From Promethearchaeota archaeon (lineage in GTDB: Archaea > Asgardarchaeota > Heimdallarchaeia > Hodarchaeales > Hodarchaeaceae): a stretch of DNA of 64,000 bases. Of the stretch, positions 12,250 through 26,866 are shown piece by piece. A model generated the notes under the pieces. It ran no database searches and was not told where the DNA came from. It saw only the letters and a list, made by a program, of their open reading frames with translations. The stretch lies in NCBI GenBank assembly GCA_048938105.1, contig JBHLMN010000017.1, forward strand, positions 80,714 through 144,713. Direction: 5' to 3'. Each line of letters opens with the position of its first letter. Position 1 is the stretch's first letter. Both the position numbers and the translations under genes were made by a program.

Positions 12250-12777
12250 CTAGAGAAACTCCGTTAAAGTCTTTTTTTGTGATTCTAAAGCCAAGAGCTT
12301 TTCTTTTCTCCACAGTCCTCCACCATATCCATGTAATTTTCCATTACTAGCAATCACACGATGACAAGGGACAACAATAGCAACGGGATTATTCCCATTT
12401 GCTCGCCCAACTGCTCGGGAGGCAGATGATTTGCCTATTGTTTTTGCTATCTCTCCATAGGATCTAGTTTCTCCATAAGGAATCTTTTGTAATGCGTTCC
12501 AAACAGAGGTTTCAAAAGGAGTGCCTCGTAAATCTAGTGGAATAGAAAAATCACGTAATTTCCCGTTAAAATATTCTTTCAGCTCAATTTCAAGCTTATC
12601 AAGAATCGGATGTGATCCTTCAATGCAATCAAGTCGGTACCATTTTTTGTATCGTGTTTTAATGTTGAATAAGTCATGCCTATCTTTGAATTCAAGAAGA
12701 CAACAGCCTTTAGAGGTTGTACCAACGATTAAGTCACCTAAAGGGCTATCCAAATATCGATAGACTAGTTTAGACAT
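12250..12777 (-). CDS. ogt: Methylated-DNA-[protein]-cysteine S-methyltransferase (AdaB/Ogt)
   Basis: GTPFETSVWNALQKIPYGETRSY, RAVGRANGNNP and PCHRV active site. Start reassigned to ATG 12777 (MSKLVY), which overlaps the upstream stop. Confidence 0.93.
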   Translation of the reverse strand: MSKLVYRYLDSPLGDLIVGTTSKGCCLLEFKDRHDLFNIKTRYKKWYRLDCIEGSHPILDKLEIELKEYFNGKLRDFSIPLDLRGTPFETSVWNALQKIPYGETRSYGEIAKTIGKSSASRAVGRANGNNPVAIVVPCHRVIASNGKLHGYGGGLWRKEKLLALESQKKTLTEFL

Positions 12778-13312
12778 GGCGAGTCTCTCCAGGAGGGTGT
12801 CCAAATTCTTTAGAGAAAGCAGTTCTGAACCCACTATTGGACTTATATCCACAATGAGATGGGAGCTTTTTAACCCTCATTCCTTTTCTGAGTAATTCTT
12901 TTGCGTAAGCTAAGCGAAGTTTACGGTGAAATGCCATTGGAGTTAACTGATAATGATTTTTGAAATGCCGTCTAATAGTAGAGATCTCTACTCCTGAAAT
13001 CCGAATCAAAGTTTTCTCATCAATTCTCTTTGAAACATTCCTTTTCATATAAGAAAGAACCTTTTCCAACCAATTAGGAACATTATTGGGAAATAAATCT
13101 GGTTTACATCGTTTACAGCTTCGATATCCTGCAACAATTGCTTCTTCTCTCGTTGAAAAGAATACCATGTTTTTCTCCAATGACAATCTTGCTTTACATG
13201 AAGGAAGACAGAATATTTTCATCGTCCGCACCCCCACATAAAAATATCCATCGTATGAAGCATCACGTCTTATTCGTGCACTAACCATTTCTTCATACGT
13301 AAGTTTTTTCAT
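12770..13312 (-). CDS. adaA: Ada N-terminal Zn-binding methylphosphotriester methyltransferase + AraC HTH (AdaA-like)
   Basis: RDASYDGYFYVGV, IFCLPSCKAR, GYRSCKRCKP, AraC-type CGYKSNSGFRTAFSKEFG. Start ATG 13312 follows an AGGAG RBS. Confidence 0.88.
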   Translation of the reverse strand: MKKLTYEEMVSARIRRDASYDGYFYVGVRTMKIFCLPSCKARLSLEKNMVFFSTREEAIVAGYRSCKRCKPDLFPNNVPNWLEKVLSYMKRNVSKRIDEKTLIRISGVEISTIRRHFKNHYQLTPMAFHRKLRLAYAKELLRKGMRVKKLPSHCGYKSNSGFRTAFSKEFGHPPGETRHV

Positions 13313-13433
13313 GATGAGAACTCCTTTCACGATTATTTTAAACATTGTGCCTATTTTCGAGCAAGTAATTCGATATCACATGAATTCAGGATTTTCTTTT
13401 AATGAATAGAATGTGCAATGTAAAAAAAGATTA

Positions 13434-14819
13434 CTAGTAAATGAACGGAACACCGAGATCGTCAAGCTGCTTACGAATAACTTGATAAAGATCCAAATAT
13501 TCTGTTGAAGGCTTGCACCGCTGTACGTCATAACATTCTCGAAAATCTTTACCTAATGGAGCTTTCTCTATCCTATCTTCGTAAGTCTTGAGAAGAGTAA
13601 GAACAAGCTCATTAACATCACTTCTTGACAGTTGCTCTTTTGTTATTCCCAACCCTACTTCAGCAGCCATCCGTGCTTCCAATGGAGTAGCATAGTTTTT
13701 GTGTCTATTTTTTGCAACAGCCATTATCCAGAGATTTGAACCAGAAACAACTGAAGCAAGAGCGTGAGTTGCTGCCTCTCTTAAAACCATGGGTGTACAT
13801 GGTCCAGCAGCAGCATAACTAGCCGATAAAGAGATTAAATTACTGTTACGCGCTAACGCTTGGTAAGTTGTTGTCAATACCCAGAGAAGCTCCCGTGTTG
13901 TATTGCAGGTGTGCTTTAAGTGAAAGGGAAAGTAAACCATGAAATGTGCCTGATTCACAAGTAGACCCATTAAGTGATACGCAAGTCCAACAATAGCGGT
14001 TCCTTCGGGCCCTCCTGCATAACCACCCATAATAGGCCCAGCCAATGCCCCTACGAAACAGCCATAGCTGTGGAAATGTACCATTTTGTTCAGTAGAGAG
14101 TTATTCACTTTTAACTCCGTAATACTTGCCACAAAACGCCCATCAGTCAGTCTCTCTCCCCATTCAGGATTACTTGCTGCAATTTGCGCAGCATCAGATT
14201 CCGCAGTTCCAACACTTTTAAGAAAGATTCCAGGCCGACCCACTCTTCGGGCAGCCTCCCGAAACATCATGGCATGAGAAACAGATCCCTTTACTTCTGA
14301 GGGATATCCTGAGCGAATGGGCATCCCTTCTATCTCATCAAGGATGGGAGCACAGACTCCATCTGCTAGAGGCTCCTGCAAGTAAGCCATACTCATTGGG
14401 ACAAAAAGATCTTCATCACAAGTGATGTCAGGTGTGAACATACAGAAAGGCTTTCGAGAATCTGTTATTTGTCGATTTGAAATCTCTCTCGAATCACGTC
14501 CAAATCCTAATGTGAACCTGCCAGGGTAGTTTCCGAGAGCCTCTTTCACCTCTTCTTCTGTAAATAAAACCCTTCTATGAGTATCAGTCACCAAAGTTCC
14601 CACAGTCAGGTAAAGATCTTTTGCAGCGTCCCAAAGATTATCTACTAGAGTATTATCTTCTGGAACTGGTGTTTGGGGATCAAAATGAATATCATATTCC
14701 TTGATAATCCTCCGCAATTCAGGAACTAAGAATTTAAGGTCGAAATCCTTTTCTAAACAAACTGGCCCATTTTGTGCCCTGTCCAGTACTTCATTGATAC
14801 GCCATGGAGGAGTTCCCAT
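13434..14819 (-). CDS. mtmB: Second MtmB homologue, no pyrrolysine
   Basis: RAQNGPVCLEKDFD, VGRPG, ELKVN, GGYAGGPEGTAIV, AGPCT, FRECYD. Lys at the Pyl-equivalent site; start ATG 14819 follows a GGTGA RBS. Confidence 0.88.
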   Translation of the reverse strand: MGTPPWRINEVLDRAQNGPVCLEKDFDLKFLVPELRRIIKEYDIHFDPQTPVPEDNTLVDNLWDAAKDLYLTVGTLVTDTHRRVLFTEEEVKEALGNYPGRFTLGFGRDSREISNRQITDSRKPFCMFTPDITCDEDLFVPMSMAYLQEPLADGVCAPILDEIEGMPIRSGYPSEVKGSVSHAMMFREAARRVGRPGIFLKSVGTAESDAAQIAASNPEWGERLTDGRFVASITELKVNNSLLNKMVHFHSYGCFVGALAGPIMGGYAGGPEGTAIVGLAYHLMGLLVNQAHFMVYFPFHLKHTCNTTRELLWVLTTTYQALARNSNLISLSASYAAAGPCTPMVLREAATHALASVVSGSNLWIMAVAKNRHKNYATPLEARMAAEVGLGITKEQLSRSDVNELVLTLLKTYEDRIEKAPLGKDFRECYDVQRCKPSTEYLDLYQVIRKQLDDLGVPFIY

Positions 14820-14871
14820 TTTTCTCACCAAATATTTTTTCTTATTCAAAATAAACAGTAGATCTTTTGAT

Positions 14872-15549
14872 TTAGAACCAGACCAAAATTTCAGATAATT
14901 TCTTTCTTTTTATATCAGGAACGGTTACATCTTCTTTTGGAAATCCAATAGGCATTATAACAAACGCTTTCTCGTTTTTAGGCCGTTTTAAAAGATTTCG
15001 TAGAAAATTCATACTGATAGGTGTGTGTGTTAATGTTGCTAAACCTGCATTATGGATGGCCATGATGAGTATCCCAACAGCAATTCCAACACTCTTAGTT
15101 ACGTAATAATTTTTTCGTTTGTTATTGAATTCATCCAAATGATATTTTTGTTGAAAAACAACTATTAGATAGGGAGCTATTTCTAGAAACGGTTTTCTCC
15201 AAGTTGTTCCTAAAGGAGCTAAGTCTTGACGCCACTCCTCTGATATTTTACGTTCGTAAAATTCTTTTTCTTCAAGTTCTGCAGCTTCTCGGATCTTATG
15301 TTTGAGAACAGGATCACTGACAATAACAAATGTCCAGGGTTGTTTATTTGCTCCTGAGGGGGCCGTACCAGCAGTTTTGATAATATTCTTAATGATTTCT
15401 CGTGGAAAAGGCTTATCTGAAAAATCTCGTATTGATCTACGAGAATTGGCAAGATGATACATTTCTTGAGCTCTTCTACTCATATCCTCCTTGGAATATG
15501 TTTGAAAGTGATAGGGAATAAATGGATACTTATTTTCCATTGATCTCAC
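14872..15549 (-). CDS. Iodotyrosine deiodinase-family (nitroreductase superfamily) flavoprotein
   Basis: RRSIRDFS, AGTAPSGANKQPWTF, lid EEKEFY...W..DLAPLGTTWRKPFLEIAP and LTHTP match the IYD subgroup. Confidence 0.85.
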   Translation of the reverse strand: MRSMENKYPFIPYHFQTYSKEDMSRRAQEMYHLANSRRSIRDFSDKPFPREIIKNIIKTAGTAPSGANKQPWTFVIVSDPVLKHKIREAAELEEKEFYERKISEEWRQDLAPLGTTWRKPFLEIAPYLIVVFQQKYHLDEFNNKRKNYYVTKSVGIAVGILIMAIHNAGLATLTHTPISMNFLRNLLKRPKNEKAFVIMPIGFPKEDVTVPDIKRKKLSEILVWF

Positions 15550-15668: not shown

Positions 15669-17267
15669 ATGGATCCCAAAGAAAAAAGATTTTTATCAGA
15701 AATTAGTGATATTTCAGGTCAAAAACTACTAAAAGTCGATAAAGTGGGATATGGAAGAAATGGTTATGTTGAGAAGCGTAATCGTATAATAAAATTATCC
15801 ATTTCCAATCTAAAACTCTATTATATTCCAGAAAGTATAGAGAATTTAAATGAACTAAAAGCTCTTCATATGGGGGGAAATTATCTAACTAAAATATCAG
15901 ACCCGATCCTAACCCTAAGGAATTTGGAAATTCTAGAAGCTTGGGACAATCGGATTGAATCAATTCCTAATGATATTGGAGTTTTGGAAAAAGTTTGGCG
16001 ATTACATCTCGCAGGAAATAAAATAACCGAGCTTCCGTTTTCTATTGGTAATCTGCCAATGAAGAAGCTGTATCTCAAACATAACAATGTTAGTTATGTT
16101 CCCGAAAGTATTGGGAACTGGATAAACCTCGATGTTTTTGGTTTACCTCTCAATAATCTTCCCTCACTACCAGAAACTATTAATGGTTGGAAAAACGTCC
16201 GTGTAATCTCAGTTTGGCAAAATAAGCTTAGAACGTTACCAGATGTTCAACTCAACGTTAAAGAATTACGAATTAATAATAATTATTTTACAGAAGTACC
16301 TCCTCGGGTGTACGAGATCAAACAATTAAGGAAACTTTGGTTGAATAGTAATCAATTGACAGAGATACCAGAAATTCCAAGAGGACATCTTCAAAATTTA
16401 TGGTTTCTAGATTTACAGAATAATCTCCTTTCTACATTACCTAAGTCCCTTCAGCAATTACCTAACCTCCGTGATTTAAGACTCTCAGGTAACCTATTTG
16501 ATTCCTATCCAAACTGGTTGGATTCTCTTAAAGGTTATAAAGTTGATACCACGACTCATAAGCGACAAGTAAAACAACCAGATTATATTGGAGTCAAGAA
16601 ATATGTGAAATATCTTGAAGATAATCACTTACCAATAGAACACTTAGTAGAGATCAAGCGACTCCAGAGATATCTCGAGAATGAGAAAGGTTTCTCCAGA
16701 ATTGTGAAAGCAAAGGCTGATGATGTTAAAGATTATATTGCACAAGGAGGTATCACAGCTTTTGCATTGAGATCTCTATATCTATATTTCTCTTGGCTTC
16801 AGGATTATCCATTACGTCGAATTATCAAAGAAGAATTAGAGAATTTTGCACAGATAATGAGTATCAATCTTCAAGATGTCAGAAGGCTTGTTGAGGAATC
16901 ACAGGTTGTGACATCATTATTAACAGTAGACGGAATAGAAGAAAAGACTCCTAATATTGTTTCTCAACCACCACAAGTTGTAGAGAAAATTGAGGGGGAT
17001 GAATGGGAGTCTTTCAAAACCAAACTAGATAAAACATCTATAAAAGCGTTAGAAATTCTCTTAAAGGCTTCAAAACCTAAAAACGCACTTAAAAAATTCG
17101 CTGATGGCCAAAACAGACTCCCAGAAACCCTTCTTGAATCTATTAATGAATTAGCATTGGAAATGATTGGTGATCTACTCATTGACCAAGAGACCTGTCA
17201 AATCACAGAAGTTAATTATAGAGAGAAATTACTTGAAATTTTCTTTAGAAAAGGGAAAGTAGAATAA
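15669..17267 (+). CDS. Leucine-rich-repeat protein with integrase-SAM-like middle domain and C-terminal TerB-C domain
   Basis: About 10 LxxLxLxxNxLxxLP repeats. The C-terminus (EESQVVTSLL...LPETLLESINELALEMIGDLLID) aligns with the C-terminus of the next gene. Confidence 0.82.
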   Translation: MDPKEKRFLSEISDISGQKLLKVDKVGYGRNGYVEKRNRIIKLSISNLKLYYIPESIENLNELKALHMGGNYLTKISDPILTLRNLEILEAWDNRIESIPNDIGVLEKVWRLHLAGNKITELPFSIGNLPMKKLYLKHNNVSYVPESIGNWINLDVFGLPLNNLPSLPETINGWKNVRVISVWQNKLRTLPDVQLNVKELRINNNYFTEVPPRVYEIKQLRKLWLNSNQLTEIPEIPRGHLQNLWFLDLQNNLLSTLPKSLQQLPNLRDLRLSGNLFDSYPNWLDSLKGYKVDTTTHKRQVKQPDYIGVKKYVKYLEDNHLPIEHLVEIKRLQRYLENEKGFSRIVKAKADDVKDYIAQGGITAFALRSLYLYFSWLQDYPLRRIIKEELENFAQIMSINLQDVRRLVEESQVVTSLLTVDGIEEKTPNIVSQPPQVVEKIEGDEWESFKTKLDKTSIKALEILLKASKPKNALKKFADGQNRLPETLLESINELALEMIGDLLIDQETCQITEVNYREKLLEIFFRKGKVE

Positions 17268-17547
17268 TTTTCTTATATAGCTTTTTCATCTTATGAACAT
17301 ATTATAAACCTTTTTAAATGACTTCTCATCCAAAGCTCAATCATTAGTGTCAATTAATATATGTTTTCACACTCTAGATACTGTTTGGAGTTATTCTGAT
17401 ATTGAAGAAGGTGTGTAATAATATTATAAACGTGCTATTGTATTATCCTCTTATTAAATATTATTCTCTTACCGACTCTGAATAACTTACACACAGGAGT
17501 TGTTGAGATAAGAAGAATTAAATGAGTTGTACAGGTAGCATCTTTCG

Positions 17548-20500
17548 ATGTCAACAGCTATAACAATCGTTACGATGAAGGCTAGAGATAAAGAACAGAA
17601 AATAGGAGACGCTCCATTAAGAATTCCAAAAAGATTCACAGATGTTTTTCCTGTGAAAACAAAAACAGTTATTATGGCTTGTCAAGGAAATTATACCCCT
17701 GAAATAGGAGATTATATATCTTTTCAGCTTTCTTCTGAAGACTCCTTAACCCACAAAGAATCTTCAGCTGAATTGTTTGTTCAAATTGATAAAATAACCT
17801 CATTTGAAAAAATATTATCTACTGATATTACTCAAGAGGAAATCGGATCAATTCTCGAAAGTTCTCCGAAGAGAATGGTTTGGATAGAAGGAATTGTCCT
17901 TGGATACTATTCTCCAAGTCGAAAAAGAATTTTAATGCCAAAAAATTCCCTTATAGGAATGATAGGAGAATTTACTGATTCAGAATCTATTAAGATTTTT
18001 ATAAACCTGTATATGGAATGTCTATTTCGCACATTCCCCCTTAAACTAATAAATTATTTAGTCTATAACTCAATCCAAGGAAGTCAGTTTTGTCAAAAAG
18101 GTAATAACAAGCTTTTAGAAGAAGTGATTCCTAAAATCCTAAAGAACATCGATGACTATTTCTTAAAGACAGAAACTAAAGATCTTCTTAATGTATTTAC
18201 ACAACAAACGAATTTTACCATTTCGAAAGAAACAGAAGATATTAATGATATCAAACATGAATATATTAATTGGCTTGCTTCTAATAAACCAATGGTCGAT
18301 TTCATAACTGATATATTGAAATATACTGAGAAAAAATTAAGTTTAATATTAAAATACCGAGGGAAGGTGGAAGTAAATCCAAGGCCACTTAATAGTCATA
18401 TCAGAAAAATAATTCAAACAGAACTTAAAAAATATGAAACAGGAGTACACCCAAAAAGGGAGACAAATCTAAAACAGCCAGTTTTTGCTGAATTTGAAAT
18501 TGGATTCAGTCCCGAACAACAAGTCAAAATATCGGTCATAGAACCCGAATTGCAATCTAAGGTCAGGAAAACCGATCGGAAACCAGACTCCATCAAAACC
18601 AATGAAAAGCGAGAAGATATTCGTGAACTTGAAGCTAAGATGAAACTCGCTGCTCATTCTCTGGACTTTAAAAAAGCATCCAAAATTCGAGAGAAAATTG
18701 AAGAAATAAAAAAAGAAAATATCGATAGAGAAATAGAAAAACAGCCTTCTGATTTTGAGGCACCTTCAGCAAAGAAACTTCTTAGAACACCCAAATTCGT
18801 ACCATTCGATCAATACTGGCCAACCTTAGATACAATGAATGAAGATCAAAGAAATTGGTACGATTATTGGGTGTCAGAAGCCGAAAATGGACATTATTAT
18901 CCGACTGATATATCTTATATTTTCTTATATATCTATCAAACACTTGATTATGAAGATAAAGAAAAAGGGTATCGTACATTACGAGATATTTGGATCCATT
19001 ATCGGAGAGAACATCCCAAACTGGATCGGTACTTGATTGATTGGATAACAGACTATGTCCTTCTTCATAAATGCCATTATGATCAAAGGACTATACTAAA
19101 GGAATTAATCAAATTTCACTCAAAATACACAGTCGAATGTCTTGATTCTATATTAACATTATTCCCCCCTCGCTCATTTAAAGAAATGCCTATAGATTGG
19201 ATTGATGTTCTGGCAAATAATAGTATCAAAAGTAGTTCATTTTATATGTCGAAGCCCAATGTCATGAACACAATAATCCCTGAAGTACTTGATGCAATTG
19301 ATCGATATTACCATGAGAATGAAAATATAGGTTTATTAGAGAAATTTAAACCCGATAAAGTTACACGGTTCGTCTTTGATCGTGCCCTCAAGGATGAAAG
19401 TTATCTTACTAAGACTATTGAAGTTTTATCTTACACAAAATCCCTATCTCTTCTTGTTTTCATCTCTGAGGTTGTAAGAACAACAGAGACTAAACTCCGT
19501 AAGTACTATCGTTTTCCAGCCCTTCCTCATATTTGTATATTAGAAAGAGAAATTGAAAAAGTAATTGAAACCACTTTTACGAAGTTTATCAGTGAGTTGA
19601 GTTTAACCGAAGGTGAAACACAATTATCCTTCATCGACGCAGCGCAAAAATATGTTAATAGAGTCGAGAATGAACCTGAAAAAAAACCGAAATTGTACCA
19701 GTTTCAACCTAATTATCAAGATATGACTAAATCTCAATTGAAATGGTATTTCTATTGGCGTAACCAGGTTAGGAACGGAAATTTTCTCCCTACTCAAATT
19801 GGATACATTATATTGTATATCTATGAAATAATCAATGATATTGGAATTCAAAATCATCAAGAGGGTTATAAACGACTATCAGCAATCTGGGAATATTACC
19901 GTATCGATAATCCCGAGTTAGACGAATATTTCCCTGAATGGATAGCGGAATATGCGATTCTAAATCAAATACCTGTTGATAATCTCGAAGAACTCTATTA
20001 TAAGATTTTAAATAGATTAGATAGAAGAGAACAAAGAGATCTTCGATATGAATTAACAGAACTTTTACTTTCTCAATACAAACATGAAGCTTTTAATAAA
20101 ATTCCAATCAAAATGATTTATGAGCTTGTTGGTTATACAAATTTTCTCCCCTATACACGATTAAATGACACAGTTCGAAATACGATAGATCAGCATGTAA
20201 ATACAATACTAAATGAAGTAAATTCTTACTATTTACAAAAGTACAAAAAAGGATTGCTAGATTGCTTCAGTCCAACCAAAAAACGGAGAATCCCCTTTGT
20301 TCTTGCTCGATATTTTGGTGACACTGATATATTAGAGGTAAAAGGTTACTCACGGCAATTTTTGAATTTTTTAGACAATATAATAAGATTTATCCAGAAT
20401 CGATTCCGTGATATTGAATTAGATACAACTAAAACCCGATTGAAGGTTGTTATTCCCGATCCTGAAGTTGAAGCACTAATTGATTATTATTTCATTGACA

Positions 20501-20997
20501 ACCTAAATGCCACAAACATCATGCCTAAATATTCAAAGATTGCATTACAGGTTCAAAGTGGCAATTTAGGCGTGGATCAATCTAAAATAAAGGCTTTAAC
20601 CGAGGAATCCGAGGAAATTCAATCCCTCTTAACAACCACCGAGATTGAGCAGGAAGAAGCTCTACCAGAGTTAGAAATGATTCAAATAGAAATTAAAAAA
20701 CCAATTAATAAAGAATCTGTTCAGGAAGCAGAAACAAGCGAATCAGATGAGTTGGAGCTGTTTCGATCAAGATTGACTGATCTCCAATTAGAAGTTTTGA
20801 GGATCTTAATAGTCAGTAAAAAGCCAAAAGAACAGTTAGACCAACTAGCAGAACAAACGGGTACTTTACCAGAAGCAATGATAGAATCCATTAACGAAAT
20901 CGCGCTTGAGATAATAGATGATATCATAATTGATTCTGAACTTCTCAACATTATTGATGAGTATTTGGATAGGATAAAGACGATTATCAAGATATAA
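17548..20997 (+). CDS. Shango SngA-like protein: divergent N-terminus, UVR motif, two TerB-N domains, TerB-C
   Basis: TerB-N signatures YWPTLDTMNEDQRNWYDYW...TDISYIFLYIY and FQPNYQDMTKSQLKWYFYWR...QIGYIILYIYE; TerB-C LPEAMIESINEIALEIIDDIIID. Confidence 0.8.
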   Translation: MSTAITIVTMKARDKEQKIGDAPLRIPKRFTDVFPVKTKTVIMACQGNYTPEIGDYISFQLSSEDSLTHKESSAELFVQIDKITSFEKILSTDITQEEIGSILESSPKRMVWIEGIVLGYYSPSRKRILMPKNSLIGMIGEFTDSESIKIFINLYMECLFRTFPLKLINYLVYNSIQGSQFCQKGNNKLLEEVIPKILKNIDDYFLKTETKDLLNVFTQQTNFTISKETEDINDIKHEYINWLASNKPMVDFITDILKYTEKKLSLILKYRGKVEVNPRPLNSHIRKIIQTELKKYETGVHPKRETNLKQPVFAEFEIGFSPEQQVKISVIEPELQSKVRKTDRKPDSIKTNEKREDIRELEAKMKLAAHSLDFKKASKIREKIEEIKKENIDREIEKQPSDFEAPSAKKLLRTPKFVPFDQYWPTLDTMNEDQRNWYDYWVSEAENGHYYPTDISYIFLYIYQTLDYEDKEKGYRTLRDIWIHYRREHPKLDRYLIDWITDYVLLHKCHYDQRTILKELIKFHSKYTVECLDSILTLFPPRSFKEMPIDWIDVLANNSIKSSSFYMSKPNVMNTIIPEVLDAIDRYYHENENIGLLEKFKPDKVTRFVFDRALKDESYLTKTIEVLSYTKSLSLLVFISEVVRTTETKLRKYYRFPALPHICILEREIEKVIETTFTKFISELSLTEGETQLSFIDAAQKYVNRVENEPEKKPKLYQFQPNYQDMTKSQLKWYFYWRNQVRNGNFLPTQIGYIILYIYEIINDIGIQNHQEGYKRLSAIWEYYRIDNPELDEYFPEWIAEYAILNQIPVDNLEELYYKILNRLDRREQRDLRYELTELLLSQYKHEAFNKIPIKMIYELVGYTNFLPYTRLNDTVRNTIDQHVNTILNEVNSYYLQKYKKGLLDCFSPTKKRRIPFVLARYFGDTDILEVKGYSRQFLNFLDNIIRFIQNRFRDIELDTTKTRLKVVIPDPEVEALIDYYFIDNLNATNIMPKYSKIALQVQSGNLGVDQSKIKALTEESEEIQSLLTTTEIEQEEALPELEMIQIEIKKPINKESVQEAETSESDELELFRSRLTDLQLEVLRILIVSKKPKEQLDQLAEQTGTLPEAMIESINEIALEIIDDIIIDSELLNIIDEYLDRIKTIIKI

Positions 20998-21021
20998 ATA
21001 CCTAAAGGACGCATTGTAACA

Positions 21022-22353
21022 ATGTCAAAGAAAAGAATCCCACAACGTGTATCAGCTACAATTCTAAAATCCTTGAGTGCTGGAGTGGTACCCCGTATAG
21101 GTCTAGAACATATTGCTGTAGGTCGAAAAGAGGAAATAGAATCATTATTGGAAGATTTGGAAAATATTGAGGTAGGAAGCGCAGCTTTTCGATTTTTTAT
21201 TGGACGATATGGATCTGGTAAGAGTTTCTTAATTCAGTTGCTAAGGAATTATGCGATGGATCGTGATTTCGTTGTTGCTGATGTTGATTTATCCCCAGCT
21301 CGACGATTCATTGGCGGGGGAAATAAAGGCGTTGCTACATATCGTGAACTTATTACAAATATGTCCACAAAAACACGTCCTAGTGGTGGAGCATTAACAG
21401 CAATCTTGGAAAAATGGATCTCCAAAATTCAATCCATGGTAATCACTGAAAAAGGGATCAAACTTCAAGATCCTGTTTTTGTGGATTTGGTGGAAACAGA
21501 GATAATTAATGCTGTAAACAACATCAAGGACTTAGTTCATGGGTTTGATTTCGCAACAGTTATCTCAACATACTGGCGTGGGCACAAACTTGGTGAGGAA
21601 GAAACGAAAGAAAATGCTCTTAGATGGTTACGAGGGGAATATACCACAAAAACAGAGGCACGAAACGCTATAACAAATGTTAGTGTCATTGTCGATGATG
21701 ATTCATGGTACGATTATATCAAGTTAATGGCGCGATTTGTCACTGAAATTGGATATAAAGGACTATTAGTGTTTTTTGATGAGGCTGTGAACCTTTATAA
21801 GATCACCCATACTCAATCAAGAACCAATAATTATGAGAAACTTTTAACAATGTATAACGACACCATGCAAGGAAAAGCTGAGTACATTGGAATTTTTGTT
21901 GGTGGTACACCTCAATTTCTCGAAGATCGAAGGAGAGGCCTCTATAGCTATGAAGCACTACATTCACGTCTTGTTGAGAGTCGGTTTACCAAAAATGGAT
22001 TACGTGATATTTCAGGCCCTGTCATTAAGCTAGAACGTTTATCCTTAGAAGAGATTTTTGTACTATTAACTCGTGTTATGAACATTCATGCCCTCCACTA
22101 TAAATATGAAGCTAATTTAACAAATGATGAACTTCAAGAATTCATTAAAATAATAGTTAGCCGAATTGGGGCCGATAAACTGCTTACTCCACGAGAATTT
22201 GTCCGAGAATTTATTATTTTATTAAATATCCTTCGGAGGAACCCAGAAAAATCCTTTTTAGGATTAATTCAAGGAGAAGATTTCAAACCACAAGCTCCAA
22301 GCCAAGTAGAGGAATCCGTTAAAGGAACAGAATATGAGGAATTTACCTTATGA
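21022..22353 (+). CDS. DUF2791/BrxD-family P-loop ATPase (Shango SngB-like)
   Basis: SLSAGVVPRIGLEHIAVGR, Walker A GRYGSGKS, Walker B LLVFFDE, RRGLYSYEALHSRL, TPREF. Confidence 0.9.
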   Translation: MSKKRIPQRVSATILKSLSAGVVPRIGLEHIAVGRKEEIESLLEDLENIEVGSAAFRFFIGRYGSGKSFLIQLLRNYAMDRDFVVADVDLSPARRFIGGGNKGVATYRELITNMSTKTRPSGGALTAILEKWISKIQSMVITEKGIKLQDPVFVDLVETEIINAVNNIKDLVHGFDFATVISTYWRGHKLGEEETKENALRWLRGEYTTKTEARNAITNVSVIVDDDSWYDYIKLMARFVTEIGYKGLLVFFDEAVNLYKITHTQSRTNNYEKLLTMYNDTMQGKAEYIGIFVGGTPQFLEDRRRGLYSYEALHSRLVESRFTKNGLRDISGPVIKLERLSLEEIFVLLTRVMNIHALHYKYEANLTNDELQEFIKIIVSRIGADKLLTPREFVREFIILLNILRRNPEKSFLGLIQGEDFKPQAPSQVEESVKGTEYEEFTL

Positions 22354-24584
22354 GTGATGCTATTTTCAATCGTTTTCCTGCATTTATTCAAGAATGGATT
22401 TACTCGCATGGATGGGAGGAATTACGTGAAATTCAGGTTGCTTCTGCAAATGTAATTTTTAATACAAACGCTCATGTATTGTTGGCAACTGGAACTGCCA
22501 GTGGGAAAACGGAAGCAGCTTTTTTTCCTGCATTAACATTGATTTATGAAGATCCTCCTGCAAGTATTGGTATCCTTTACATCTCACCCTTGAAAGCTTT
22601 AATTAATGACCAATTTAATCGCATAGAGGAGTTGTTAGAAGAAGCAGAGATCTCCACTTGGCCCTGGCATGGAGATATTCCTCGAAATCTGAAAAGAAAA
22701 TTACTCGAAAATCCTAATGGAGTTCTTCAAATTACGCCTGAATCTATGGAAAGTTTACTAATAAATAGACACCAAGATCTTCGGAGAATGTTTGGAGATC
22801 TTCGATTTGTGATAATAGACGAAGTACACGTTTTTATGAATGCAGAGAGAGGAACTCAAATCCTATGTCAATTAGAACGTCTTGGAAACATCATTGGATA
22901 TCATCCCCGTCGTATAGGTCTGTCAGCAACTTTAAGCGATTATAGCTCTGCAGAAAAGTGGTTAAGTTCAGGAACAACCATTTCAATTAATACTCCGAAA
23001 GTACAAGGATTAATCAAAAGAATTAGATTGGCTGTTGAGAATTTCATTGATCCTAATCCGAACCCTGCTGGAATAATGCAGTATGGTGAAGGGGGCGAAT
23101 TAGTTGCCCCAGCTTCAGAACCCTCTTCCGAACCATATCCCTCAAATATGTATTTATTTGATCAAACGTTAAATGTTCAGTGTTTAATCTTTACTAACAC
23201 CCGAGAACGAGCGGAAAGCACAATTAATGCCCTTAGGGCAATTGCTGATCAAAAACGATATCCAAATAGGTACTATGTTCATCATGGGAGTATTTCTGCT
23301 TCTCTAAGGGAGGAAGCTGAATCAATTATGAAAACTGGAGACATCCCTTCTGTTACGGCATGTTCTGTTACGTTGGAATTAGGCATTGATATTGGATCCT
23401 TGGAAAGAATTATTCAGATTGGATCCCCACGAACAGTATCCAGTTTTTTACAACGGCTAGGCCGATCAGGTCGAAAGGAAAAAGATGTTTCTGAAATCCT
23501 TTTCATTCATTCGGAAGAAGAACCTTCGGATAACAAACCATTACCTTACTTGATACCTTGGGAATTGATTCAATCTGTAGCAATCATCAATCTTTATTTA
23601 GAAGAACGCTGGATTGAACCAATACAAGAGTTAAAATCTCCATTCAGTTTATTATATCACCAAACAATGTCTTCTCTGGCATCTGCAGGTGAACTCTCTC
23701 CTCAATCTCTTGCTCAACGAGTACTCTCCTTGACACCATTCAAGTATGTCTCTCAAGAAGAATATCGAACTCTTATTCATCATCTTATAGAATTGAATCA
23801 TATTGAACAAATTGAAGATGGAGGATTAATTGTAGGCCTTGATGGTGAACGAATTGTTCGAAACTATCGATTTTATGCGGTCTTTCCTGATGTGGTAGAG
23901 TGGACGGTGAAGAACACAGAAGAATTTGATGAGATAGGTAAAATTGGGCAATTATTTCTACCAGGTGATCGGTTTCCCCTAGCAGGATATACCTGGGAGG
24001 TTAAAGAAATCTATCCTGATCAAAAGGTGATAATTGTATCGAAAGTTGGTGGTCGAACCCGATATTTCTGGCCTGGAGGGATTGCCCCTGTTCATACTAA
24101 AATCCTTCAGAAGATGCGAAAAATCCTGTTTGAAGAAAAGATTTATCCTTACTTACAACCTGGTGCTGTTGAACGAATTCAACAGGTTAGAACATTAGCC
24201 AGAGAAGTAGAAATGGATAGACAAGTCCTTTTTCAGCTTGCTGGTCATAAATTTGTACTTCTACCTTGGGCTGGATCAATTTCGTTTCGAACAATTAGAA
24301 GAATATTGGAATTACATTCTGAAGAATTAGGGATCAGAAGTATTAGCGAACAGTCTCCCTATTTCTTTTTATTTGAAGCGGAAGACCAATCAAGAGATAG
24401 TCTTGAATCAGAGATCAAAAGATTATGTAACAGAATTGAATCACCTGCTGAGCTTATCAAAGAGGATGAAATTTTTGTCTGGCGGAAATTTGATCAATTT
24501 ATCCCGACTGATCTCCAACAACAGACATTAATGAATGACTACTTAGACTTGAAAGAAGTCAAAAGCATTATTAAGAACTGGTGA
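22350..24584 (+). CDS. Lhr-like SF2 DEAD/H helicase (Shango SngC-like), copy 1
   Basis: TASGKT, SPLKALINDQ, TPES, DEVH, LSAT, HHGS, LELGIDIG, QRLGRSGR. ATGA overlap with the ATPase gene. Confidence 0.9.
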   Translation: MSDAIFNRFPAFIQEWIYSHGWEELREIQVASANVIFNTNAHVLLATGTASGKTEAAFFPALTLIYEDPPASIGILYISPLKALINDQFNRIEELLEEAEISTWPWHGDIPRNLKRKLLENPNGVLQITPESMESLLINRHQDLRRMFGDLRFVIIDEVHVFMNAERGTQILCQLERLGNIIGYHPRRIGLSATLSDYSSAEKWLSSGTTISINTPKVQGLIKRIRLAVENFIDPNPNPAGIMQYGEGGELVAPASEPSSEPYPSNMYLFDQTLNVQCLIFTNTRERAESTINALRAIADQKRYPNRYYVHHGSISASLREEAESIMKTGDIPSVTACSVTLELGIDIGSLERIIQIGSPRTVSSFLQRLGRSGRKEKDVSEILFIHSEEEPSDNKPLPYLIPWELIQSVAIINLYLEERWIEPIQELKSPFSLLYHQTMSSLASAGELSPQSLAQRVLSLTPFKYVSQEEYRTLIHHLIELNHIEQIEDGGLIVGLDGERIVRNYRFYAVFPDVVEWTVKNTEEFDEIGKIGQLFLPGDRFPLAGYTWEVKEIYPDQKVIIVSKVGGRTRYFWPGGIAPVHTKILQKMRKILFEEKIYPYLQPGAVERIQQVRTLAREVEMDRQVLFQLAGHKFVLLPWAGSISFRTIRRILELHSEELGIRSISEQSPYFFLFEAEDQSRDSLESEIKRLCNRIESPAELIKEDEIFVWRKFDQFIPTDLQQQTLMNDYLDLKEVKSIIKNW

Positions 24585-26866
24585 GGGACCTGGCCTCAGC
24601 TCAATTTTATCGACTTGCTCCATGGATTCAAGAGTGGATTTATAGACAACAATGGGAGGTTTTTAGACCAATTCAAGAAGAGGCCTGTAAAGTCATTTTC
24701 GATACTCCTCATCATCTCCTATTAGCAACTGGAACTGCCAGTGGGAAGACCGAAGCTGCATTATTTCCTATCCTGACTCTATTAGATCAAAATCCTTCTG
24801 CAACTATTGGTGTTTTATACATTGGACCATTAAAAGCTCTTATTAATGATCAATTCCAGCGAGTTGAAGATCTCCTCCGAGAAGCGGATATAAAAGTTTG
24901 GCGTTGGCACGGAGATGTACCACAGAGCTACAAAACCAAATTAGTTCGAAATCCAAACGGATTACTGCAAATCACTCCAGAATCATTAGAAAGCTTGTTG
25001 ATTAATCGCACAACTGATTTACGTAGACTCTTTGGTGATTTAAGATTCATCATTATTGATGAAGTACATGCATTCATGCCTCAACTATCGGATCGCGGAA
25101 GACAAGTAATTTGTCAACTTGAGCGGCTTCAAGAGTATATTAACCAAATTCCTCGGCGAATTGGACTCTCTGCTACACTTGGTGATTATTCCTATGCTGA
25201 ATATTGGCTTGCTTCAGGTACAAATTTCCCTGTTATAACTCCTATAACCAACGAACCCTCAAAGAAACTTCGACTTAGTATTGAACATTTCACTGAAACA
25301 ACATGGCATCGAGCAAAGATGAGAGGTCAACCCCCACCACGTGGCCTTGACCTTCCATCACATAGATGGATCTTTGATTTAACTTTAGGAAGAAAATGCA
25401 TAATTTTCCAGAATGATAGAGAAAGAACTGAGCTAGTAACTCATGGATTGAGAGAAATCGCTAAATCAAAAGGATTACCAGATGTATATCACTCGCATCA
25501 TTCATGTATAGCAGGTTTACTTAGAGAAGATGCGGAGGAGTTTTTGAAAGAAAAGAACGGGGTTCCTCATGTTGTTGCAGCAACTATGACATTAGAGCTA
25601 GGCATTGATATATCTGATGTTGAAAGGATTATCCATGTTGATAGCCCTCATGCTGTCTCCACATTTGTACAACGTTTGGGAAGATCTGGTCGAGTAAATA
25701 ACGCGTCAGAGATGTTTTTTGCTGTTTCTGAGAATCCTAAATCTCCTCGTACGCCTCTTGCATATCAACTCCCTTATCGATTATTGCAAGCCATAGCAGT
25801 TGTCCAACTCTATCTTGATGAACGATGGATTGAACCAGCACTCCCACTTAAGAAACCGTTTTCAATTTTATTTCACCAAACCATGTCGATTCTAGCTTCC
25901 GCTGGTGAACTCTCTCCTCAAGCGTTAGCTCAAAGGGTATTATCACTTTCTCCTTTCAAGAATATTACTCAGCCTGAATTTCGCGTATTGTTAAACTACC
26001 TTATTAATAATGAGTATATTGAGCAAATTCAAGATGGTGGCTTGATTCTTGGACTAGCTGGAGAGAAGATAGTCCGAAACTACCGTTTTTATGCGGTATT
26101 TCGAGACTATGCGGTAGATTACTCAGTGAAGGAGGGGACGCGTGAGATTGGCCATATTGAACAACTACTCGAACCAGGTGATCAATTATTAATTGGGGGG
26201 TATCCTTACCGAATAACTCAAGCTTATCCTAAACAAAAACTCATGCTAGCTGAAAAGATATCGGAAAAACCATTATATGTGTGGCCAGGGAGAATCGCTC
26301 CTGTACATACTAGAGTAGTTCAACGAATGCGACGTTCTCTCTTTGAGGAAAAATCTTATTCATTCCTTCAGAGAGGTGCACGAATTCGTCTGGAAGAAGG
26401 CCGATTATTTGCTAAAAAGCATCAATTAGATAAAAGGGTCTTATTAAAAGAGTCAAAAAACAGATATAGCCTACTACCATGGATGGGATCCACACCGTTT
26501 AGAACACTTCTTCGTATATTAAAATTTCTGGGTCCTAACACCTTAGGGATAAATTGGGTGCAACCTGAACCTGTAACAACAACGGATCCCCATCTTCCAG
26601 TCCATGTTATTCAATTTGAAACCAGTAGTTATAATAACGCCAATTCGCTTTATAATGACCTATACAAACTAGTAGAAAACGTTTCAGAGAAAGAGCTACA
26701 CCAACTATATGATCAGTCTGAAAAATTCATTTATGAAAGATATCACCACTTATTACCAGTAGAATTACAACGGGAGGTATTAATTCATAATTATCTGGAT
26801 CTTAAAGAGGTAAAGAGTGTTATTCGTACGTGGGAGGATTATTCTATTTATTGGCAAACAGATTAA
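24581..26866 (+). CDS. Lhr-like SF2 DEAD/H helicase (SngC-like), copy 2
   Basis: Same motifs intact (TASGKT, DEVH, LSAT, QRLGRSGR); HHSC replaces HHGS. GTGA overlap with copy 1. Confidence 0.9.
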   Translation: MRDLASAQFYRLAPWIQEWIYRQQWEVFRPIQEEACKVIFDTPHHLLLATGTASGKTEAALFPILTLLDQNPSATIGVLYIGPLKALINDQFQRVEDLLREADIKVWRWHGDVPQSYKTKLVRNPNGLLQITPESLESLLINRTTDLRRLFGDLRFIIIDEVHAFMPQLSDRGRQVICQLERLQEYINQIPRRIGLSATLGDYSYAEYWLASGTNFPVITPITNEPSKKLRLSIEHFTETTWHRAKMRGQPPPRGLDLPSHRWIFDLTLGRKCIIFQNDRERTELVTHGLREIAKSKGLPDVYHSHHSCIAGLLREDAEEFLKEKNGVPHVVAATMTLELGIDISDVERIIHVDSPHAVSTFVQRLGRSGRVNNASEMFFAVSENPKSPRTPLAYQLPYRLLQAIAVVQLYLDERWIEPALPLKKPFSILFHQTMSILASAGELSPQALAQRVLSLSPFKNITQPEFRVLLNYLINNEYIEQIQDGGLILGLAGEKIVRNYRFYAVFRDYAVDYSVKEGTREIGHIEQLLEPGDQLLIGGYPYRITQAYPKQKLMLAEKISEKPLYVWPGRIAPVHTRVVQRMRRSLFEEKSYSFLQRGARIRLEEGRLFAKKHQLDKRVLLKESKNRYSLLPWMGSTPFRTLLRILKFLGPNTLGINWVQPEPVTTTDPHLPVHVIQFETSSYNNANSLYNDLYKLVENVSEKELHQLYDQSEKFIYERYHHLLPVELQREVLIHNYLDLKEVKSVIRTWEDYSIYWQTD

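Follow-up and report, generated by a model that had tools for sequence, protein, structure and literature searches.

We analyzed a 64,000-nucleotide stretch of the genome of a Promethearchaeota archaeon (contig JBHLMN010000017.1; the window hereafter) and found at positions 15669–26866 five genes that we interpret, with moderate confidence and by sequence comparison, as a chromosomal antiviral system of the Shango family. The system would consist of a four-gene core, comprising sngA, sngB and two helicase genes, sngC1 and sngC2, and of an accessory input subunit in which leucine-rich repeats (LRRs) precede a TerB_C tail. We infer a defence function in this host, a loader role for SngB, pairing of the two helicases and contact between the LRR-TerB_C protein and the complex. 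The LRR-TerB_C gene is the distinctive element of the locus and is confined to one genus of Hodarchaeales. Shango is a widespread and experimentally validated, though poorly understood, system of bacteria. In the Asgard variant, pieces that elsewhere are fused or occur singly are found apart, and a natural variant of this kind could help to show how Shango senses infection.

An earlier note, made from the DNA sequence alone, had described the locus as five co-oriented genes of Shango type in an Asgard-type archaeon, and these points were borne out. All five genes are plus-strand open reading frames (ORFs) lying where the note had placed them, Pfam and PADLOC agree with the domains it had named, and near-identical homologues of three of the locus proteins carry Hodarchaeales, Heimdallarchaeota or Promethearchaeota labels in metagenome-assembled genomes (MAGs). 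The PADLOC profiles for SngA, SngB and SngC all matched strongly. The canonical order sngA–sngB–sngC is kept, with the genes co-oriented and tightly coupled: sngA and sngB are separated by a 24-nt gap, and two 4-nt overlaps follow, the ATGA and GTGA that the note had read among the last three genes, at 22350–22353 (sngB/sngC1) and 24581–24584 (sngC1/sngC2). From this layout we infer that sngA, sngB, sngC1 and sngC2 form one operon and that the LRR-TerB_C gene is a separately transcribed upstream unit. The 280-nt spacer between them probably holds the terminator of the LRR-TerB_C gene and the promoter of the operon. A scan for sigma-70 promoters and terminators gave no matches above shuffled controls, the bacterial consensus being irrelevant to an archaeal host.

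SngB matched PF10923 (BrxC_BrxD/DUF2791) with an E-value of 5e-164 and the PADLOC SngB profile with 2.9e-187, confirming the DUF2791 assignment of the earlier note, and it shares ~60% identity with the SngB proteins of Firmicutes, Chloroflexi, cyanobacteria and other groups. Its Walker A (GSGKS, K67) and Walker B (DE; D253, E254) motifs are invariant across 12 homologues, and the ratio of nonsynonymous to synonymous substitution rates (dN/dS) is 0.036. We assign SngB to the ORC/Cdc6-like AAA+ ATPases of the BrxD family and not to the STAND NTPases.

Both helicases matched the SngC profile (2.9e-225 for SngC1 and 5.4e-210 for SngC2) and contain the Pfam domains DEAD, Helicase_C and WH_Lhr. The two share 50% identity from end to end and retain motifs I, II, III and VI (GTASGKT, DEVH, SAT and QRLGRSGR), and purifying selection acts on both with equal strength (dN/dS 0.054 and 0.057, respectively). 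Orthologues of SngC2 occupy the same position in six related genomes (G006, G009, G011, G003, G014 and G281), and the tandem is kept in all informative congeners as well as in the divergent Shango of G006 and of G281, the latter from another Asgard family.

To place the duplication, we compared the Asgard helicases with bacterial ones. We fetched 80 bacterial SngB loci, ~68 of which had readable downstream sequence; in three of the latter (L048, L063 and L095, all Firmicutes MAGs) two full-length SngC genes stood in tandem, with the motifs kept. The eight Asgard helicases formed one clade that contains the clade of second copies, and the Firmicutes pairs formed a clade of their own, each of the three groups having a support of 100 in the Shimodaira–Hasegawa-like approximate likelihood ratio test. 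Forcing all second copies into a single clade cost 118 log-likelihood units and was rejected by the approximately unbiased test (p 2.8e-7), with the caveat that this grouping was chosen once an initial tree was already available. The Asgard and Firmicutes pairs being separate, the helicase was doubled at least twice, which argues for a selectable function of the pair but also means that a doubled helicase does not set this locus apart. Two equally constrained paralogues that evolved twice independently suggest that the helicase acts as a pair.

SngA is long, and its parts differ in how far they can be traced. The protein is composed of a head (residues 1–345), a UVR coiled coil (358–390), two TerB_N stretches (~420–650 and ~715–950) and a TerB_C domain (994–1143). 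Pfam supported TerB_N over both stretches (8.6e-43) and TerB_C (1e-12), the domains that the earlier note had named, and the PADLOC SngA profile matched with 1.5e-98 over profile positions 81–527 of 528. The two TerB_N halves are 27% identical to each other (E 4e-23). TerB proper (PF05099), the domain for which SngA is known in published descriptions, gave no Pfam match at E ≤ 0.01, yet the SngA profile aligns over the whole C-terminal 460 residues, and Pfam may be missing a divergent TerB core. Relatives of the head were found in only seven protein clusters, all of the same clade, and a comparison with the 1201-aa SngA of Ruminiclostridium cellulolyticum, whose head has ~650 residues, showed no similarity between the two heads. 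Its AlphaFold2 (AF2) model, built from a seven-row alignment, had a mean predicted local distance difference test score of 40 and was unusable, and a feature search of the ESM Atlas with the head returned no usable match. On these comparisons, the head has the appearance of a variable module. Long SngA heads and doubled TerB_N domains are also present elsewhere, including bacteria. The earlier note had listed a second TerB_C protein with LRRs, a doubled TerB_N and two helicases as the content of the variant; all are present, while the uniqueness of the doubled modules did not stand, both being known from other loci.

The LRR-TerB_C protein has ~10 leucine-rich repeats (residues 40–290), a helical middle (~308–418) and a TerB_C tail (400–526). 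Pfam detected LRR_4, LRR_8 and LRR_14 over ~50–280 (~1e-18 for LRR_4 and LRR_8) and TerB_C at 395–520 (1.6e-7), and the PADLOC SngA profile matched the tail only (5e-16, residues 307–524). In a profile comparison with hhalign, residues 400–526 aligned with SngA 1010–1147 at a probability of 98.6% and 36% identity. The homology of the two proteins in this comparison is confined to that region, and Pfam found nothing at the HAS barrel and the SAM-like integrase domain that had previously been proposed for a head and a middle part, respectively; neither proposal found support. In the AF2 model of the whole protein the LRR solenoid was confident and the tail of low confidence. The putative second input protein having kept only the TerB_C tail, this tail is a candidate for the link between inputs and engine.

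Searches of large protein collections indicated a single and narrow family. The non-LRR part matched 15 clusters in a word-index search of 5.8 billion proteins, all of them Asgard-labelled, full-length LRR-TerB_C proteins of 67–85% identity. An exhaustive HMMER search of 1.84 billion representatives recovered one LRR-TerB_C cluster and one fragment, and the next matches below the family were weak, covered the TerB_C core only (E 1e-11 or worse) and belonged to SngA-type proteins. A scan of the bacterial loci with hidden Markov models found exactly one TerB_C ORF in 76 of 80 and none in four, compared with two in the Asgard loci, so that none of the 80 contained a second TerB_C gene; LRRs were found neither in these loci nor among 113 TerB_C representatives. 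TerB_C without TerB_N does occur elsewhere, in divergent proteins that serve as the sole SngA of three-gene loci, none of them with LRRs. We also observed a cyanobacterial 501-aa protein with a long coiled coil and TerB_C but no LRR (L103:8001-9506), whose gene is surrounded by housekeeping genes and has neither sngB nor sngC in its vicinity, indicating that TerB_C is used outside Shango too.

We then considered the linkage of the LRR-TerB_C gene to Shango. At an E-value below 1e-50, SngB was found in 7 of the 21 genomes that represent the genus and in 10 of the 399 Asgard genomes searched, a patchy and accessory-like distribution; the genomes are incomplete, and these counts mean "not found" rather than "absent." Within the genus, the LRR-TerB_C gene was present in exactly the six genomes with the close Shango type; it was found neither in the 14 congeners that have no Shango nor in G006, whose Shango is divergent. 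The survey of gene neighbourhoods upheld the association that the earlier note had expected, the gene staying beside the locus, upstream of sngA and co-oriented, in every informative genome. It adjoins sngA in G000, G011, G014 and the P0013 MAG (spacer 280–550 nt), lies 1.5 kb away in G009, and is 6 kb away in G003 and 12 metagenome contigs, with three opposite-strand genes between. Given this separate spacer and these insertions, the single five-gene unit that had been proposed was not retained.

The same observations bear on an alternative in which the four-gene operon is the whole system and the LRR-TerB_C gene is a by-product, formed when part of the 3′ end of sngA was locally duplicated and joined to one of the genome's own LRR genes; its product would now act in defence independently or not at all, and the gene would be nearby through shared descent only. 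We consider this possible but somewhat unlikely. A gene with its own spacer that tolerates insertions of 1.5–6 kb before sngA is less likely to encode a strictly co-expressed subunit. All six carriers are close kin with shared flanking synteny, and the perfect co-occurrence may represent one inheritance event. The Shango of G006 and of G281 runs with two helicases and no LRR partner, so the core does not need the LRR protein. The host genome encodes ~8 other LRR proteins that are 29–37% identical to the LRR part, which makes it plausible that a native LRR was joined to a TerB_C tail. Moreover, no deposited structure for SngA, SngB or any Shango complex was found, which makes the role of TerB_C as a docking module a guess. 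All of this weighs against an accessory input subunit. The by-product explanation is countered by purifying selection on the whole protein, including the TerB_C tail (dN/dS 0.16), where a tail kept by chance would be expected to decay, and by the constant upstream and co-oriented position of a gene never found in the 14 Shango-less congeners. Invariant columns are present in the tail of the LRR-TerB_C alignment. A complex prediction of SngB with the tails of SngA (985–1149) and the LRR-TerB_C protein (300–532) scored 0.00 and speaks neither for nor against binding.

Two candidates were set aside in the course of the comparison. One was G015 as a case of an LRR-TerB_C gene 260 kb from a decayed Shango, since truncated genes at every junction suggest joined contigs and make the genome uninformative. 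In that genome (L012:9027-13352, L018:6595-9067), a 4.3-kb Shango fragment has truncated genes at both ends: at one, part of an amylase gene and the last 222 aa of SngA; at the other, an SngC2 that breaks off after residue 26. A C-terminal fragment of a tRNA synthetase follows 25 nt after the LRR-TerB_C gene. The "single-contig" assembly thus has the look of several contigs strung together and not of true gene decay. The other was a tetratricopeptide repeat protein encoded divergently upstream of the G006 Shango, considered as an analogue of the LRR-TerB_C protein and dismissed for having no TerB_C tail.

The pattern of selection within the LRR-TerB_C protein is a further point against the accessory-subunit reading. 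The dN/dS ratio of its gene is close to that of sngA (0.19), both being three to five times above those of sngB and the sngC genes, and within the protein the LRR part is the most conserved (dN 0.11 vs. 0.22 in the tail). A conserved LRR region is not usual for an arms-race receptor. It fits a conserved, possibly host ligand over a fast-evolving viral one, which makes a guard or brake role a live sub-variant. Under such a role, the LRR-TerB_C protein would be a negative regulator whose tail occupies the docking site of SngA and keeps the engine off until the LRR ligand, a conserved host protein attacked by the virus, changes. The homology of the tail to that of SngA would make competition for one site possible, and separate transcription would permit independent dosage. 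We nevertheless think a guard unlikely: bacterial Shango works without such a brake. A guard is in any case a sub-case of a functional accessory subunit, and sequence cannot tell the two apart.

Returning to the reading that we prefer, a core with an accessory input subunit, the locus may work as follows. SngA, with its variable head, TerB_N modules and C-terminal TerB_C, would be the input or scaffold subunit, and SngB would load or switch on the Lhr-like 3′-5′ helicases on invading DNA. SngC1 and SngC2, derived from a tandem duplication inside the Asgard lineage, would probably be paired, either as a heteromer or on two substrates. The tail of the LRR-TerB_C protein would dock where that of SngA does, and the ligand of its LRR solenoid would be a protein, probably a conserved rather than a fast-evolving one. 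The LRR-TerB_C protein might thereby add or gate a trigger for the ATPase–helicase engine, SngA and the LRR-TerB_C protein being alternative or cooperating inputs, with SngB converting the input signal into loading of SngC1 and SngC2 on foreign DNA. A bolder version, which we put forward tentatively and regard as somewhat unlikely, treats TerB_C as a universal plug through which exchangeable inputs attach to the ATPase–helicase engine: in this genus, a native archaeal LRR receptor grafted on a bacterial-derived TerB_C would have produced a two-receptor immune machine, SngA plus the LRR-TerB_C protein, acting in trans, driving the ATPase and heteromeric helicases as a split, nonhomologous counterpart of nucleotide-binding leucine-rich repeat receptors (NLRs).

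The coordinates of the locus, and of the Firmicutes loci with two helicases, are collected in the table.

Table. Features of the Shango-family locus in the window and bacterial loci with tandem helicases
Feature	Position	Strand	Product	Basis or remark
LRR-TerB_C gene	15669-17267	+	532 aa	Pfam LRR and TerB_C; PADLOC SngA tail match
AT-rich spacer between LRR-TerB_C gene and sngA, 280 nt	17268-17547	.		Sequence read directly; T-rich tract directly after stop codon
sngA, long form	17548-20997	+	1149 aa	Pfam and PADLOC
sngB, BrxC/BrxD-type ATPase	21022-22353	+	443 aa	Pfam PF10923 and PADLOC SngB
sngC1, Lhr-like superfamily 2 DEVH helicase	22350-24584	+	744 aa	PADLOC SngC
sngC2, Lhr-like superfamily 2 DEVH helicase, GTG start	24581-26866	+	761 aa	PADLOC SngC
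Two-helicase locus, Bacillota	L048 6351-10827			
Two-helicase locus, Clostridiales	L063 3967-8512			
Two-helicase locus, Defluviitaleaceae	L095 10662-14815			

The host assembly spans 5.85 Mb in 65 contigs, and the GC content of the locus matches that of its surroundings. Upstream flank genes encode a nitroreductase, an MtmB-like protein, Ada and Ogt, and downstream ones a radical S-adenosylmethionine (SAM) protein, a helix-turn-helix (HTH) protein and aldo-keto reductases; no integrase, mobile element or defence island was found among the genes flanking the locus. The downstream flank is syntenic in three relatives and the upstream flank in a further set of metagenome contigs, which marks the locus as long established in the chromosomes of this subclade. 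The upstream genes form a minus-strand run at 12250-15549 of the window, in which the MtmB-like methyltransferase (471 aa) has no in-frame TAG and Ada is a Zn/HTH regulator, and the same run precedes the LRR-TerB_C gene in the related metagenome contigs L116 and L118.

A further explanation is that the locus, with its Lhr-type helicases and ORC-like ATPase, is a module for DNA repair or replication restart and not for immunity. The metabolic and repair flanks (Ada, Ogt) without a defence island or mobile element, the synteny and apparently vertical inheritance within the subclade, and the helicases themselves would fit: the solved chains closest to SngC1 are those of mycobacterial Lhr (5v9x and 7lhl), and the nearest solved helicases overall are the repair helicases Lhr and MrfA/YprA. 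The SngC profile, however, reaches about double the score of the next-best helicase profile (748 vs. 387 bits), the patchy spread within genus and phylum is typical of accessory defence rather than housekeeping repair, and the orthologous bacterial system has been shown to protect against phages. We thus regard a repair module as very improbable.

Downstream of the locus, some relatives contain a sixth co-oriented ORF of 333 aa, 20–40 nt after sngC2, in G009, G011, G014 and the P0013 MAG (L013:15676-16677; L014:13416-14417; L017:6119-7120; L119:21502 onwards). The window and G003 cleanly lack this ORF, and the radical SAM gene is directly next there. The ORF had no Pfam or PADLOC match, and its Atlas features pointed weakly toward toroid proteins resembling prenyltransferases and terpene cyclases.

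On the origin of the core, at least 579 bacterial Shango loci were confirmed in one scan, and the helicase tree places the Asgard SngC clade inside the bacterial diversity. The most likely direction of transfer is from bacteria to archaea, with an Asgard ancestor acquiring a bacterial Shango. A second, divergent Asgard Shango was observed in G006 (L016, 4622-13550) and G281 (L101, 2933-10198), with SngB ~74%, SngC 57–59% and SngA 27–36% identical, two helicases and no LRR-TerB_C gene. Another contig (L106:8001-13064) has a three-gene Shango, its SngA without a Pfam-detectable TerB_N, next to a Fic gene; the contig has methanogen markers (MCR_C, DUF2112, DUF2113), placing Shango in other archaea too. 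In G128, from another Asgard family, a SngB/BrxD-like ATPase (L102, 9681-10964) is 50% identical, and no SngA or SngC was found within the 20 kb fetched; this ATPase may belong to a different system.

The mere presence of Shango in Asgard archaea is not new, as a published survey lists it there (PMC11291487), and the earlier note's statement that no counterpart had been described holds only for the second TerB_C or LRR subunit, of which we found no description in the literature searched. A published survey recognised few defence systems in Hodarchaeales, and the LRR-TerB_C gene represents one concrete, lineage-specific addition to their immune repertoire. The novelty of the locus rests on this accessory gene and less on the convergently duplicated helicase. 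The variant is narrow, limited to one genus and built from known families with no new protein family; it is of use as a lead and does not amount to a new principle.

Among known systems, the closest is the Shango of Escherichia coli and Pseudomonas aeruginosa PA14, which protects E. coli and P. aeruginosa against phages (10.1101/2022.05.11.491447; PMC10250203, preprint). The Asgard locus shares its three families, their order and orientation, the translational coupling and near end-to-end profile matches. It differs in having two tandem SngC genes instead of one, a 1149-aa SngA whose head is specific to the clade and which contains a UVR coil and two TerB_N domains but no detected PF05099, the extra upstream LRR-TerB_C gene, and an archaeal host. 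The two-helicase Shango of Firmicutes has the same SngA–SngB–SngC–SngC layout with both helicases of full length, whereas its duplication is independent, its SngA is short and it has no LRR-TerB_C gene.

Type 2 BREX/Pgl systems contain a comparable dyad, BrxD and BrxHI, in which a DUF2791 ORC/Cdc6-like AAA+ ATPase is tightly linked to an Lhr/Ski2-like helicase, and BrxD has been proposed to be an ORC/Cdc6-like loader or activator of BrxHI (PMC12839542). The BREX profiles in PADLOC did match the Asgard locus (BrxD 2.3e-49, BrxHI 4e-116), but far below the Shango profile scores, and neither a PglX methyltransferase, a PglZ phosphatase, BrxC nor PglW is present among the flanking genes.

Finally, the earlier note had likened the locus to eukaryotic LRR/NTPase immunity. 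With NLR and STAND receptors, both the eukaryotic NLRs and the bacterial Avs/NACHT proteins, it shares the combination of an LRR array and a P-loop NTPase in an immunity context, a likeness that stands at the conceptual level. Pfam found no NACHT or NB-ARC match in any of the five locus proteins, the LRR and ATPase are separate proteins from genes that are probably transcribed separately, and homology is limited to the generic LRR fold. The ATPase being a BrxD-family AAA+ protein and not a STAND NTPase, the parallel to NLRs is therefore analogy only. If TerB_C indeed acts as a universal plug, the locus would represent a split counterpart of the LRR–NTPase logic of NLRs in the archaeal lineage closest to eukaryotes.

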